From Escherichia coli (GTDB taxonomy: Bacteria; Pseudomonadota; Gammaproteobacteria; Enterobacterales; Enterobacteriaceae), in assembly GCF_003018235.1 (NCBI RefSeq), contig NZ_CP027437.1: a stretch of 64,000 nt of DNA; one strand, 5' to 3'. The notes beneath the pieces were generated by a model. The model saw only the letters and a list, made by a program, of their open reading frames with translations, was not told the DNA's origin and made no database searches. Below, piece by piece: positions 25,030 to 48,856 of the stretch. How positions within the stretch are numbered: position 1 is the stretch's first letter; every line of letters begins with the position of its first letter. A program made the translations under genes and the position numbers.

Positions 25030-25236
25030 TTTGTTCTCCTTAATTATGTAAGGAGTATTTGATCATGTATACGCAATAAAAAACAGCTTCAGGTAATGAG
25101 GAATATCTCAATTTTTAAACATAAAATGCGAATTATTTAGTACAAAAAATCAGCGTTACGTAATCTTTCCCTGATTAAACAGGTGGTTAAAGGAATGAAG
25201 GTGGGGATATCCGGCGTATTGAAAGAAGCATAAAAA

Positions 25237-25270
25237 TGAAAGCCGGGAAGTTCTAATTTTCTTCCCGGCT
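25237..25270 (-). terminator. Rho-independent terminator downstream of the orphan immunity gene
   Basis: aaagccgggaag ... cttcccggcttt with flanking T-run on the minus strand. Confidence 0.65.
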
Positions 25271-25274
25271 TTCA

Positions 25275-25559
25275 TTAGACTTCTTCTATTTCATATTTTA
25301 TAGACAATTCATGAAAGGCAGTAAATACCAGTGAAAATAATTTATCTCTATCACTTCCATTTAAATTATTTACAATGAAAAAACCATCCTCATGATCTTC
25401 TATTGAAAAATCAATCCAGTTTGAATAACTAGATGGAATCCAAAGTGAACCATCAGTATTAATCCGAGAGGATGGTTGATTTTCTTTTATTCTCTCGACA
25501 ATAAAAGAAAGTAAATTATCTACTTTATCATCAACATGTATAATATATTCAACACTCAT
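25275..25559 (-). CDS. Putative immunity protein for the orphan Rhs toxin tip (94 aa)
   Basis: Small AT-rich ORF 12 nt downstream of the orphan rhs-CT; no recognisable domain. Confidence 0.55.
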   Translation of the reverse strand: MSVEYIIHVDDKVDNLLSFIVERIKENQPSSRINTDGSLWIPSSYSNWIDFSIEDHEDGFFIVNNLNGSDRDKLFSLVFTAFHELSIKYEIEEV

Positions 25560-43032: not shown

Positions 43033-44070
43033 TTAATCATCACCCGCCACGCGGATCACCACTTTGCCGAAGTTTTTACCCTTCAGCAGGCCGATAAATG
43101 TCTGTGGCGCATTCTCTAAACCGTCAGTAATTTCTTCGCGGTAGTGGATTTTATCCTCTTTCACCCATTGCCCCATCTCCTTCTGAAACTCATGGATGCG
43201 GTGACCATAATCCTGAGCGATAATAAATCCTTGCAAGCGAATACGTTTTTTCAGCACCGTAGCCATCAGCAGAGGTAAACGATCCGGACCGGGTGGTAGC
43301 TCTGTAGCGTTATAGCTGCTCACTAAGCCGCAGACGGGAATGCGCGCAGATGTATTAAGTAAAGGTAGCACTGCATCAAATACCTTACCGCCCACGTTTT
43401 CATAATAGATATCAATACCTTTTGGGCACGCTTTCGCCAGTTGTTCGGCAAAATCATCCGCATGGTGATCAAGGCATACATCGAAGCCTAAAACCTCGGT
43501 AGCATGGCGGCATTTTTCCGCGCCACCGGCTATCCCCACCACCCTGCAACCTTTAAGTTTGCCGATTTGACCCACCGTCGCCCCCACTGGTCCTGTCGCC
43601 GCAGCTACCACCAGCGTTTCGCCCTCTTTGGGCTGACCGATATCCAGCAGCCCCATATAAGCGGTAAAGCCTGGCATCCCCAGCACACCCAGCGACCACG
43701 ATGGATTTTGCGGATGATCGCCAAGTTTCACCAGATCATCACCACTGGATATGTCATAGTCCTGCCATCCACTGTAGCCCAGCACCCAGTCGCCAGGCTG
43801 ATAATCAGGATGATTCGACTCCACGACACGGCTCACCGTGCCGCCGACCATCACGCCGCCAATATCAACCGGCGGCGAATAGGATGGCTCATCGCTCATG
43901 CGCCCGCGCATATACGGGTCCAGTGACAGATAAACAGTACGCAGTAACACCTGTCCTTCACCTGGAGTTGCGACGTCATCCTCTTCAAGACGGAAATTCT
44001 CGGGAATTGGCGCGCCATGCGGACGCGAGGCCAGAACCCAACGGCGGTTACGTTGCTTTTGTTGCCCCAT
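43033..44070 (-). CDS. curA: NADPH-dependent curcumin/dihydrocurcumin reductase (MDR family, 345 aa)
   Basis: ATG at 44070 (MGQQKQRNRRWVLASRPHG...); Rossmann motif AAATGPVGATVGQ. Confidence 0.9.
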   Translation of the reverse strand: MGQQKQRNRRWVLASRPHGAPIPENFRLEEDDVATPGEGQVLLRTVYLSLDPYMRGRMSDEPSYSPPVDIGGVMVGGTVSRVVESNHPDYQPGDWVLGYSGWQDYDISSGDDLVKLGDHPQNPSWSLGVLGMPGFTAYMGLLDIGQPKEGETLVVAAATGPVGATVGQIGKLKGCRVVGIAGGAEKCRHATEVLGFDVCLDHHADDFAEQLAKACPKGIDIYYENVGGKVFDAVLPLLNTSARIPVCGLVSSYNATELPPGPDRLPLLMATVLKKRIRLQGFIIAQDYGHRIHEFQKEMGQWVKEDKIHYREEITDGLENAPQTFIGLLKGKNFGKVVIRVAGDD

Positions 44071-44250
44071 AATGCTCTCCTGTGCTTTTGGCATGAATCG
44101 ATCAATAGTAGCAGGCTCACAGGATTGGTTTTGTTTGCAGCCGTCACATCCCCTCTGCAACACGCAATAATTTCATCGAGGAATCCGTTGCTTCGGGCTG
44201 TTTTCGATAGTATTGATAACGTCATCATCATTATTTAATCGAGGCCAAAC

Positions 44251-44766
44251 ATGTCCATCCGTTTTGCCCGCAAAGCCGACTGTGCTGCCATTGCGGAAAT
44301 TTATAACCACGCCGTGTTGTATACGGCGGCTATCTGGAATGACCAAACGGTGGATGCAGATAACCGCATTGCCTGGTTCGAAGCGCGGACTTTAGCAGGT
44401 TATCCAGTGCTGGTGAGCGAGGAAAACGGCGTAGTGACGGGATATGCCTCGTTTGGCGACTGGCGTAGTTTTGATGGTTTTCGCCATACCGTGGAACATT
44501 CGGTTTATGTCCATCCCGATCATCAGGGGAAAGGTCTGGGGCGTAAATTGTTAAGCCGATTGATTGATGAAGCGCGGGATTGCGGGAAGCATGTCATGGT
44601 CGCTGGGATCGAATCGCAAAACCAGGCTTCGCTGCATCTCCACCAGTCGCTGGGATTTGTCGTCACCGCGCAAATGCCGCAGGTAGGCACTAAATTTGGG
44701 CGCTGGCTGGATCTGACATTTATGCAGTTGCAACTCGACGAACGCAGTGAACCGGACGCAATCTGA
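44251..44766 (+). CDS. mnaT: GNAT L-amino acid N-acyltransferase (171 aa)
   Basis: GNAT motifs ...HQGKGLGRKLL... Confidence 0.88.
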   Translation: MSIRFARKADCAAIAEIYNHAVLYTAAIWNDQTVDADNRIAWFEARTLAGYPVLVSEENGVVTGYASFGDWRSFDGFRHTVEHSVYVHPDHQGKGLGRKLLSRLIDEARDCGKHVMVAGIESQNQASLHLHQSLGFVVTAQMPQVGTKFGRWLDLTFMQLQLDERSEPDAI

Positions 44767-45215
44767 TGAATCAGTCGCTTACCCTTGCTTTTTTGATTGC
44801 CGCCGGGATTGGTCTGGTAGTCCAAAACACGCTGATGGTGCGCATCACTCAGACCTCCTCAACCATTCTCATCGCCATGTTGCTGAACTCTTTGGTAGGA
44901 ATTGTGCTGTTCGTTTCTATTTTATGGTTTAAACAAGGCATGGCGGGGTTTGGCGAACTGGTGTCCAGCGTGCGCTGGTGGACACTTATACCTGGCTTGC
45001 TGGGATCGTTTTTTGTCTTCGCCAGTATCAGCGGATATCAGAATGTGGGAGCGGCGACAACTATTGCGGTACTGGTCGCCAGCCAGCTGATTGGCGGTCT
45101 GGTGCTGGATATCTTCCGCAGCCATGGCGTACCACTACGGGCGTTGATCGGCCCAATTTGTGGCGCAATTTTACTTGTGGTTGGTGCCTGGCTGGTGGCC
45201 AGGCGCACATTTTAA
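44766..45215 (+). CDS. ydcZ: DMT-superfamily inner membrane protein (DUF606, 149 aa)
   Basis: Four predicted TM helices; K-12 synteny. Confidence 0.85.
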   Translation: MNQSLTLAFLIAAGIGLVVQNTLMVRITQTSSTILIAMLLNSLVGIVLFVSILWFKQGMAGFGELVSSVRWWTLIPGLLGSFFVFASISGYQNVGAATTIAVLVASQLIGGLVLDIFRSHGVPLRALIGPICGAILLVVGAWLVARRTF

Positions 45216-45449
45216 TCAGAGGATGGTGCCACCTTTGGTTAACTGTTTGTGGCGCGCTTCCATATCTTCTTTATGCTTGCGACCGTGATGGGCGATCGCT
45301 GTGCGCAGACGCTGCTGCTGGGTGTAGCGATCTTCCCGACTTAACTCCGCGTCATCGCTCAGGGCGATTAATAATTCGTTCATATGGGCAATGACGCTTT
45401 CTTCAATCGCGGCATCCACGCGCGCGATGACTTCATCCAGATGCGACAT
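45216..45449 (-). CDS. ydcY: Small conserved protein (77 aa)
   Basis: MSHLDEVIARVDAAIEESVIAHMNELL... Confidence 0.85.
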   Translation of the reverse strand: MSHLDEVIARVDAAIEESVIAHMNELLIALSDDAELSREDRYTQQQRLRTAIAHHGRKHKEDMEARHKQLTKGGTIL

Positions 45450-45534
45450 ACTTTCTCCTTAGCCTCTTGTGAAATTTATCGATTAATCCAAATGATATAA
45501 GTCTGCGTGGTGCCGTCAAGCCAGTGCGTAAGAT

Positions 45535-45708
45535 TTAAAACAGTGAAAACAACAGCGCCACCGGGAAACTCATCGGCCATGTTGCCCCCACCAGAAAGGC
45601 GCTTAAGAAACGGATGCGTTTCTTATCGTGAGAAAGAAACCAGGTGATAAGAAATGCGATTGCTGCCATAACCGCATAAAAAACAAGCATGTGTTGATAG
45701 AGAGACAT
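45535..45708 (-). CDS. ortT: Orphan membrane toxin OrtT (57 aa)
   Basis: ATG at 45708 (MSLYQHMLVFYAVMAAIAFLITWFLSHDKKRIRFLSAFLVGATWPMSFPVALLFSLF). Confidence 0.85.
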   Translation of the reverse strand: MSLYQHMLVFYAVMAAIAFLITWFLSHDKKRIRFLSAFLVGATWPMSFPVALLFSLF

Positions 45709-45902
45709 GTACGGGCGTCCAGCCAGATGAATAAAACGCGCGCAAATATGCGTCATTTTTTGACGTACATCAAGTTTTTTAACCGGTTTGAGAAAAAAAC
45801 ATCAAACAGCAACTTGCCCTTATCCATCTTCAGAATGAGTATTATTGCGGATTTTCTTAACCCGTACTATACACATAGGGGCAATGATAAAAGGTGGCAA
45901 AA

Positions 45903-45998
45903 ATGAATGTTTCCAGTAGAACTGTAGTACTGATAAATGTCTTTGCTGCTGTTGGTTTGTTTACTCTTATCTCTATGAGATTTGGCTGGTTTATTTGA
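45903..45998 (+). CDS. yncL: Small membrane protein YncL (31 aa)
   Basis: MNVSSRTVVLINVFAAVGLFTLISMRFGWFI; below the 60-aa cutoff of the ORF track, found by direct reading. Confidence 0.7.
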   Translation: MNVSSRTVVLINVFAAVGLFTLISMRFGWFI

Positions 45999-46399
45999 TG
46001 TAGTGATTTTGCACGCAGCACGTACTGTCAGAGAAATCAGTGCTCTGACAGTACGCAAGATCATCTCATACTCTCCAGGTTTACAACATTATCCTTAATA
46101 TTTACTTCTTTTTGCTGACATCTACATTGAAATAAGTAGAAAACATCCCCCTACTGCCGTCTATACAGACAGCTTACTGATTCAAAGGGAACCTTGTTTT
46201 CACATTTTGCTATCATCAATACTTTAGACGCGCGGGAGTCTATAAATGCTTTATACTTTCAGGGAATAAAGTAAATATAAAAAGATGGCGTAAATTATAT
46301 GCATGGCAGGATGATTGCGACCTCCTTGATGACGCTGTCCCATTGAAATTGCAAACCCCGCACTGGTTATCTTGCCCATTTATCATGCAGAACAGACAA

Positions 46400-47209
46400 T
46401 TATAGGTCTCTGAATATCTCAGAAAGATTGAATTTTTTATAGTCCATCTCTTGAATATTTCCATTTGATATCAATCGATTCATCTCTTCAACAAAATAAT
46501 TTATATCATCACATTTGTTATTATCCGGAAGATATGAGTAATTATAATTCCACCACTTTATTCTCAACAATTCATCAATAACATTTGAATCAAATCTAAA
46601 TCTGATTATTTTTGCAGGAACTCCAGCAACTATGGCATATGGGGGCACATCTTTGGTAACAACAGAATTGGCAGCAATAACAGCACCATCACCTATTGCG
46701 ATGCCACCTTTCAATACAACATCATTTCCTATCCAGACATCATTTCCTATAATCGGATTTTCAGGTTTGGTAATGAATGGTTTCAATGTCCAGCTACGTT
46801 CAAACTCACTCTTAGCAAACTTATCAAATTCACCGTTATAAGTCATCATGTGAGTAGTAAAACGATTCAAAGGATGATTTCCACCCATTATTTTTACATT
46901 TGATGCAATACTACAAAATCGACCTATATGTATATTCCCTGTAAAATGACAGGTCGGGAATGAAAAAGCGCCGACACTGGAGAAATTTTTTACAGGCATT
47001 GTTGAATATTCTTCAGCAATAACATTATCTTCAATTGTTATCTTGTCACCTTTTGAGAAAAGAAATAAATTCCTTTCTTTATACGACTTCTTCCCCTTAT
47101 GATTTAAAAAGATTTTATTATCCATACAAAACTCAAAGTGTTTTTTCGTCCACCTGAAGGTAAGGGTTTTATTTTTATCTTCCGTGAATTTATACAATTG
47201 AACTTTCAT
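46400..47209 (-). CDS. XAT-family hexapeptide-repeat acetyltransferase (Vat/CatB-like, 269 aa), very AT-rich
   Basis: C-terminal ...NPIIGNDVWIGNDVVLKGGIAIGDGAVIAANSVVTKDVPPYAIVAGVPAKIIRFRF...LLRIKWWNY resembles type-B chloramphenicol and streptogramin A acetyltransferases; ~60-aa N-terminal extension. Confidence 0.8.
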   Translation of the reverse strand: MKVQLYKFTEDKNKTLTFRWTKKHFEFCMDNKIFLNHKGKKSYKERNLFLFSKGDKITIEDNVIAEEYSTMPVKNFSSVGAFSFPTCHFTGNIHIGRFCSIASNVKIMGGNHPLNRFTTHMMTYNGEFDKFAKSEFERSWTLKPFITKPENPIIGNDVWIGNDVVLKGGIAIGDGAVIAANSVVTKDVPPYAIVAGVPAKIIRFRFDSNVIDELLRIKWWNYNYSYLPDNNKCDDINYFVEEMNRLISNGNIQEMDYKKFNLSEIFRDL

Positions 47210-47431
47210 TGTTATTACTTCTACTTATAAATTATTAGGTTAATAACGATACTCTAAAGCCTTATGCGAATCAACTATGACAGGATGAAAAATCACCAAC
47301 ATACATTTAGATCATAATAACTGCCTAATTTTTCCGCTAGTTATTAATGTAATCATTCTGATACTTAATCACCATTACACTCAGAACCTAAAACGATAGT
47401 GGCCGCCCTATAACAGCCACTAACATTTAAC

Positions 47432-48856
47432 TTAATGTTTAACCATGACGTGGCGGACGACGGTGTAATCCTCCAGCCCATAAAGTGACATATCCTTGCC
47501 GTAACCAGAAAGTTTCTGCCCACCGTGCGGCATTTCACTTACCAGCATGAAATGGGTATTGACCCAGGTACAACCATATTGCAGCCGTGCGCTGACGCGA
47601 TGCGCCCTGCCCACATCTTTCGTCCATACCGAAGATGCAAGTCCGTACTGGCTGTCATTCGCCCAGTTTACCACCTGTTCTTCGTTGTCGAAGAGTGTAA
47701 CACTCACTACTGGACCAAATACCTCTTTTTGCACGATGGCATCGTCCTGTAATGCGCCAGCCAGCAGCGTCGGCGCATAGTAATAGCCATTACCCTTGCG
47801 CTTTTCACCGCCAGTGATCACTTTGATGTGCCCTGTCGCTTTCGCCTCTTCTACTGCCTTGCTGACGCGTTCGAGATGCGCCAGCGAGCTTAAAGGTCCA
47901 AGCTCCGTAGACTCGTCATCCGGCGCACCAGATTTTAACGTTGCCACCGCAGCACCCAGTTTTTCCACCAGCGTATCGTAAATGCCTTTTTGCGCGTAGA
48001 TCCGACAAGCCGCTGTACAATCCTGTCCGGCATTGTAATAGCCAAATGTACGTACACCTTCGACCACTGCTTCAATATCCGCATCATCAAAAACAATCAC
48101 TGGCGCTTTGCCACCAAGTTCCATATGAGTACGCTTAATGGACGGCGCAGTATGGCTGATGATGTGTTCCCCAGTGGCGATAGAGCCCGTCAGCGACACC
48201 ATCCGCACTTTAGGATGTCCGGTCAGCGGATCGCCCACCGTTTTGCCTCTGCCAAACAGTACGTTAATCACGCCTGCCGGGAAGATATCTTTCGCCAGCT
48301 CTGCCAACTTCAACGCTGTCAGCGGGGTAATTTCTGATGGTTTAAGCACTACGCAGTTCCCTGCCGCCAGCGCCGGAGCCAGTTTCCACGCAGCCATCAT
48401 CAGCGGATAATTCCACGGTGCGATAGAAGCCACGACCCCCAACGGATCGCGACGGATCATCGAAGTATGACCTTCAAGATATTCACCTGCCGCCAGACCA
48501 TTCAGACAGCGCGCCGCACCAGCGAAAAAGCGAAAGACATCAACAATCGCCGGGATTTCATCATTGAACGCACTATGCAGCGGTTTGCCACAGTTACGGG
48601 ACTCCAGTTCGGCTAAAACCTGACCATTTTCTTCGATAACATCAGCCAGTTTCAGCAGGCATTCCGCACGCGCTTTCGGCGTGGTTTGCCCCCATTCGGC
48701 AAATGCTGCATCTGCCGCGCGCACAGCAGCATCGACCTGCTCTGCGGATGCCTCGGCAATCTCCAGTAAAACGTCCCCCGTTGCCGGATTATAAACAGGC
48801 TGTTTTTCCCCTTCGCCGCTAACCAGTTCTCCGTTAATCAGTAACTTATGTTGCAT
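47432..48856 (-). CDS. patD: Gamma-aminobutyraldehyde dehydrogenase (474 aa)
   Basis: Aldehyde dehydrogenase family with catalytic Cys/Glu motifs; [30 protein letters not shown]... Confidence 0.92.

Follow-up and report, generated by a model that had tools for sequence, protein, structure and literature searches.

A conserved stem-loop lacking a U-tract downstream of yncL in Escherichia coli, probably a protective mRNA 3′ end

The small-protein gene yncL lies, within the window (the whole 64,000-nucleotide stretch of Escherichia coli DNA that was analysed), in the gene order ortT (- strand), yncL (+), a hairpin, an acetyltransferase gene (-) and patD (-), and the segment 45700-47600 is 100% identical to E. 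coli strain 746. On the basis of the open reading frame list and RefSeq annotation, yncL occupies 45903-45998 on the + strand and encodes a 31-aa small membrane stress protein, named "stress response membrane protein YncL" by RefSeq in the 100%-identical strain 746 and in other genomes; its TGA stop codon ends at 45998. Residue 13 (window 45939) is Val here and in most E. coli (…LINVFAA…) and Phe in the aligned K-12-like strain (…LINFFAA…); apart from this substitution the window matches the strain throughout yncL and on to 46074. In E. coli genomes free of the acetyltransferase islet, yncL and patD are convergent and 96 bp apart, and the hairpin is the sole strong structure within the spacer between them. 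In the window strain the spacer is interrupted by the islet (46100-47436), ~1.3 kb of AT-rich DNA with a GC content of 26-40%, which carries the acetyltransferase gene (46400-47209, - strand; 269 aa, hexapeptide-repeat; "CatB-related O-acetyltransferase" in RefSeq).

Between the yncL stop codon and the stem there is a 22-nt spacer in the 3′ UTR (45999-46020, + strand), the same in K-12-like, BL21, ST131 and C3 genomes. The inverted repeat at 46021-46055 reads CGTACTGTCAGAG-AAATCAGTG-CTCTGACAGTACG, i.e. on the + strand a 5′ arm CGTACTGTCAGAG at 46021-46033, a 9-nt loop AAATCAGTG at 46034-46042 and a 3′ arm CTCTGACAGTACG at 46043-46055, the 13-nt arms being 100% complementary in a repeat search. 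The first-pass annotation had described a perfect 13-bp stem with a 9-nt loop 23 nt after the yncL stop, and both points are borne out by the repeat search and the sequence: with the stop ending at 45998 and 22 nt intervening, the repeat starts at the 23rd base. The repeat is real and not a product of chance. In 200 dinucleotide-preserving shuffles of the window, perfect inverted repeats with arms of at least 13 nt and loops of 3-20 nt arose at a mean of 0.015 per shuffled window, and any at all in only 2 of the 200. The predicted RNA fold is -22.5 kcal/mol on the + strand (z = -4.4) and -22.8 kcal/mol on the - strand (z = -3.5), and on neither strand was a shuffled sequence as stable. The only other perfect inverted repeat of at least 13 nt in the window, AAATGAAAGCCGGGAAG / CTTCCCGGCTTTCATT at 25235-25280, stands directly after a TAA codon and looks like an ordinary terminator-type hairpin.

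The + strand tail that follows the stem reads CAAGATCATCTC, with one T among its first 8 nt. There is no T-run after the stem on this strand and no A-run before it, so the reverse strand also has no T-run after the hairpin; a consensus terminator scan did not flag the site at 46021-46055. The earlier description of the element as not a typical intrinsic terminator thus stands. A promoter scan gave a 9/12 promoter-like match at 46045-46072, which is chance level (6 sites found against 8.1 expected). The first 60 nt past the stem (46056-46115, + strand) form a C-rich, G-poor tract, 15 C and 4 G, that is a putative rut region on compositional grounds. GC skew is negative from 46000 onward, and in the window strain the tail enters AT-rich islet sequence in which C also exceeds G.

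The hairpin is part of the core genome and is not an islet scar: genomes free of the islet carry it unchanged, and 44 bp separate it from the point of insertion. A 53-nt query around the hairpin found it in 5411 of 5426 complete E. coli genomes; the acetyltransferase segment is present in 1154 of the 5426 (21%). The query matched two places per genome, which local BLAST resolved as both strands of one palindromic site, i.e. a single copy. No second copy was found within the window, and an Rfam scan of 44000-48000 at E≤1 gave no match. K-12-like, BL21 and ST131 genomes, all islet-free, carry the identical hairpin. Sequence identity with K-12 continues through 46074 and allelic divergence begins at 46075; the islet is inserted at 46099/46100, after ...ATTATCCTTAAT, which leaves 44 bp between stem and insertion. 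An imperfect 20-nt direct repeat of its own flanks the islet, AACATTATCCTTAATATTTA at 46085-46104 and AACATTTAACTTAATGTTTA at 47422-47441 (16/20 identical), and the empty site in K-12, BL21, ST131 and E69 holds one copy of the repeat, terminating precisely at the patD stop codon. Neither a mobility gene nor a terminal inverted repeat was seen in the islet. A terminator-like hairpin of its own (47422-47397, - strand), TAGTGGCTGTTATAGGGCGGCCACTA followed by TCGTTTTAGG, stands immediately after the patD stop; patD thus no longer abuts the yncL hairpin in islet-bearing strains.

Two main alleles of the hairpin occur in E. coli: the K-12 type, with a 13-bp stem and 9-nt loop, and a loop variant, GTG→ACT (...AACT), with a 14-bp stem and 7-nt loop, which is probably the form behind the ~1091 genomes that match at 90-95% identity and occurs in islet-bearing (C3) as well as islet-free (T43) strains. 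In strain E29 two outer-stem substitutions yield a U·G pair and a terminal mismatch.

Outside E. coli the hairpin was followed in 80 loci from a scan anchored on ortT, with each species represented by one genome. Escherichia, Citrobacter, Salmonella and Intestinirhabdus have yncL, and a Pluralibacter MAG has a divergent version of it; Enterobacter, Kosakonia, Leclercia and others lack the gene. In each of the Escherichia, Citrobacter and Salmonella loci the yncL stop is followed at 19-33 nt by a 10-16-bp hairpin with the shared core GNCAGAG(AG)/(CT)CTCTGNC. Arm sequences differ by genus (TGTCAGAG, TGGCAGAGAG, TGGCGGGGAGG) with complementarity kept, and the loops are 3 to 9 nt long. Covariation of the 5′ arm with the 3′ arm is evident in a 23-sequence alignment (A2): 10 of 17 pairs have double-sided changes, 82% of cells are paired as against 74% in shuffles (0/500 reach 82%), and the covariation score is 0.237 as against 0.121 in shuffles (0/500). 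Controls with slid partners are only 36-50% paired, and the RNAalifold consensus retains a core of 9 bp, with compensatory changes at 3 of its pairs. None of the 23 orthologs has a U-tract right behind the stem or an A-tract ahead of it (at most 4 T per 8 nt after and at most 3 A per 8 nt before), and the first 60 nt past the stem contain 12-22 C and 4-12 G, with C exceeding G in 24 of the 24 orthologs that have the hairpin.

The core pattern matched once in each yncL-bearing Escherichia or Citrobacter locus that it detected and in none of the remaining 59 loci; yncL is missing from 52 of these, and 7 (Salmonella, Pluralibacter, Intestinirhabdus and three Citrobacter) bear yncL and were missed by an exact-match pattern. 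Genera that have patD beside ortT and no yncL show unrelated GC-rich hairpins following patD. Since the core tracks yncL, and patD alone has unrelated hairpins, the hairpin belongs with yncL and not with patD. A strand test on G·U versus A·C asymmetry gave 19 versus 20 cells, a perfect palindrome folding equally well on both strands; the assignment to the yncL strand derives from the co-occurrence with yncL and from a transcript end mapped in K-12.

That transcript end comes from published Term-seq of MG1655, in which the dominant 3′ end on the yncL strand is 1517039(-) (Adams et al. 2021, Supplementary file 1, PMC7815308). Mapped on NC_000913.3 this is the second A of a CAA overhang, 3 nt past the last stem pair (G 1517042), and the published 61-nt sequence for this entry includes the hairpin; by virtue of the sequence identity through 46074 it is carried over to window position 46058, with the overhang at 46056-46058 on the + strand. 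RNA 3′-end mapping had been proposed as a check on the element, and the published K-12 data place the dominant steady-state end 3 nt after the stem. For two T-run-followed hairpins in the 61-nt windows of the same table, the ends lie 5 and 7 nt after the stem. Reads at 1517039(-) number 75,265 at LB OD 0.4 and 536,300 at LB OD 2.0, the assignment to growth stage following the row order, a 7-fold increase in stationary phase (PMC7815308); neighbouring entries mostly have about 1,500-65,000 reads. The file has three tabs and contains the coordinate three times, so the end is taken as present under all three growth conditions. The entry is labelled only "antisense patD" (PMC7815308), the end being 60 nt past the yncL stop and beyond the 50-nt rule for "primary" ends in that study, and yncL is absent from its supplementary files. 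No discussion of the hairpin site was found in the papers that could be searched.

A Rho termination region is reported from data with and without bicyclomycin (BCM) at 1516753(-), 286 nt downstream of the 3′ end (PMC7815308). Reads upstream and downstream are 220/9 untreated and 106/72 with bicyclomycin, and the Rho score of 16.6 (p=5e-21; PMC7815308) is computed from DirectRNA-seq ±BCM in 800-nt windows, for RNA that would originate in yncL. In the LB 0.4 and LB 2.0 tables of the same study no patD-sense 3′ end occurs at the hairpin. Other published data concern the same transcript: ExcludonFinder has patD-yncL among convergent pairs with overlapping transcripts, yncL mRNA, an RNA of ~190 nt, appears among the RIL-seq and TRIC-seq partners of the sRNAs RprA and KilS (PMC8175672; bioRxiv 10.1101/2025.09.11.675593), and a tiling-array study records altered yncL mRNA levels in an RNase E or RNase III mutant (PMC3082872).

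The likely explanation of these observations is that the U-tract-less stem-loop of yncL mRNA stops 3′→5′ exonucleases after Rho-dependent termination, as in the class described by Dar & Sorek 2018. RNA polymerase transcribing yncL would not be stopped efficiently by the hairpin, because it is without a U-tract, and would run on into C-rich, G-poor untranslated RNA, antisense to patD in K-12 and within the AT-rich islet here. Rho would load on the C-rich tail and terminate downstream at scattered positions, and the 3′→5′ exonucleases PNPase and RNase II would then trim the tail back until blocked by a stem of about -21 kcal/mol. The outcome would be a precise end 3 nt beyond the stem and a stable short mRNA. 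The idea of protection by stem-loops is said to go back to Peters and co-workers in 2012. Dar & Sorek 2018 (NAR) found that Rho-dependent transcripts end precisely after stable stem-loops without U-rich tails, with C exceeding G and rut sites downstream, the ends arising by PNPase and RNase II trimming back to the stem. The features of this class recur at yncL: a stem-loop just before the dominant 3′ end, no U-tract or A-tract, C in excess of G downstream, and, in K-12 data at the resolution of an 800-nt window, downstream read-through that increases upon Rho inhibition. The suggestion of an RNA stability element, one of several made in the first-pass annotation, is thus supported by the Term-seq end at +3 nt, the cross-genus helix covariation and the rut-like, Rho-sensitive context.

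Formation of the end at +3 by exonucleases is an inference, and the BCM-induced downstream RNA would come from yncL read-through if the pathway operates as proposed; it could instead come from antisense promoters inside patD. All of the transcript evidence is from K-12, and the window strain differs beyond 46074 and soon enters the islet, where the same 3′-end processing would be expected. Compared with the class, the yncL element has an exceptionally long stem, a perfect palindrome of 13-16 bp, with an exonuclease role that is presumed here, and it sits in a convergent spacer, where it could also fold in a patD 3′ UTR.

The main competing explanation is that the hairpin itself stops polymerase, as a U-tract-less or bidirectional terminator serving yncL and the convergent patD, perhaps by way of head-on collisions. 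That the 96-bp spacer of islet-free E. coli holds no other strong structure speaks for such a role, as do the extended stem and U-run of the Salmonella ortholog and the canonical terminator at the same place in the Pluralibacter MAG. Little RNA is found far downstream without BCM (220 versus 9 reads), and weak intrinsic termination with Rho as back-up is considered possible by Dar & Sorek 2018. However, the Escherichia and Citrobacter hairpins have no U-tract on either strand and the terminator scan was negative, the RNA end is at +3 nt and not at the 5 and 7 nt seen at the two T-run hairpins, and BCM raises read-through 16.6-fold. As for the patD side, no patD-sense 3′ end lies at the hairpin in the LB 0.4 and LB 2.0 tables, the hairpin tracks yncL, and in the window strain the islet both separates patD from it and brings its own terminator-like hairpin at 47422-47397. 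A terminator of this kind is therefore judged unlikely. The canonical intrinsic terminator is rejected as such, there being no 7-8 nt U-rich tract on either strand and the RNA end being at +3; the element resembles one in having a stem-loop of similar size and stability just past a stop codon, and in its U-run-bearing Salmonella ortholog, but the Escherichia and Citrobacter forms differ in lacking the U-tract and in an end that does not fall within a U-tract 7-9 nt past the stem.

Two other explanations take the palindrome as a DNA element. A dimeric regulator might bind it, as the first-pass annotation had proposed in calling it a possible protein-binding palindrome; it is a perfect intergenic palindrome whose outer bases, TACTGT...ACAGTA, resemble the CTGT/ACAG half-sites of LexA. 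In the LexA box CTGT and ACAG are spaced 8 nt apart, whereas here the spacing is 19 nt, and the LexA-type operator is rejected on this spacing and on lack of conservation. More generally the arms change between genera yet stay complementary, the loop, which would set the half-site spacing, varies from 3 to 9 nt and leaves no fixed half-site geometry, and the site lies downstream of both flanking genes and in no promoter position, so that regulator binding is very improbable. It is still harder to credit that the repeat marks islet recombination, as a scar or an attachment site, or that it belongs to a dispersed REP-like family, even though the islet is 44 bp away and hairpins are common in REP elements. 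Its earlier placement at the islet junction does not hold, since divergence starts at 46075 and insertion follows 46099, 44 bp beyond the stem; the same hairpin is present in the islet-free K-12-like, BL21 and ST131 genomes and in 5411 of 5426 genomes as against 1154 for the islet, which has its own imperfect 20-nt direct repeat. Of the checks proposed at the outset, the search for other genomic copies gave one site per genome in 5411 genomes, and the comparison with K-12 gave an identical hairpin at the same position without the islet. With one site per genome, no copy in the window and no Rfam family, the scar and REP readings are refuted, and the repeat is not a member of a known repeat family of the REP type.

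The best reading of the inverted repeat is therefore as a conserved and functional-looking but ordinary mRNA 3′-end stem-loop, individually undescribed, of a known class and involving no new mechanism. On this reading the very abundant "antisense patD" Term-seq peak becomes assignable to the small-protein gene yncL, and the 3′ boundary of yncL mRNA is defined by a 60-nt 3′ UTR. As an mRNA 3′ stem-loop it shares with the REP/BIME mRNA stabilisers an extragenic palindrome, an RNA fold and, as proposed here, a block to 3′→5′ exonucleases; unlike these it is single-copy, is inherited with one gene, yncL, and shows no REP resemblance by eye. A closer relative is Salmonella STnc1110, the yncL transcript there, first catalogued as a σS-dependent RNA ("coding sRNA") and seen as a discrete 195-nt band. 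This size fits a short 5′ UTR, the 96-nt ORF and a ~60-75-nt 3′ UTR that ends at the hairpin. The transcript is orthologous and its 3′ region contains the homologous hairpin; in contrast to that of E. coli, the STnc1110 hairpin has a 4-nt loop, an outer helix and a U-run, and is closer to an intrinsic terminator.

In the two Salmonella loci inspected, one from Salmonella enterica subsp. diarizonae and one from subsp. arizonae, the hairpin GTTGGCGGGGAGG/CCTCTCCGCCGAC lies about 20-75 nt past the yncL stop, with the 4-nt loop, two G·U pairs and an extended outer helix that is followed by CUAUUUUUU. To judge from its sequence it may act as a true intrinsic terminator, and the Salmonella version may be a natural case of switching between Rho-type and intrinsic 3′ ends. 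In the Pluralibacter MAG a canonical A-tract/hairpin/T-tract terminator occupies the same place. The series, without a U-run in Escherichia and Citrobacter, with one in Salmonella and canonical in the Pluralibacter MAG, provides a small comparative example for the suggestion of Dar & Sorek 2018 that a stem-loop of the protective Rho type could become an intrinsic terminator through gain or loss of a U-run.

A further proposal, put forward tentatively and considered doubtful, is that yncL and patD form an excludon in which the hairpin and the Rho-dependent tail are the control point, Rho setting the extent to which yncL silences patD, and the islet uncoupling the two. If so, strong transcription of yncL under σS in stationary phase would, where it gets past the U-tract-less hairpin, continue antisense into patD, a gene of putrescine catabolism, and the islet, present in 21% of E. 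coli, would uncouple yncL from patD by 1.3 kb of DNA and a new patD terminator.

A separate structure lies on the other side of yncL. The divergent ortT-yncL spacer contains at 45736-45753 a GC-rich hairpin, ACGCGCGCAAATATGCGT, with T-rich tails CATTTTTTGA (+) and TTTATT (-). A Term-seq 3′ end published for K-12 coincides with it, at 1517357(+) and 32 nt ahead of the ortT ORF; the intrinsic-terminator score there is 3.18, and the hairpin may attenuate ortT, an orphan toxin gene.
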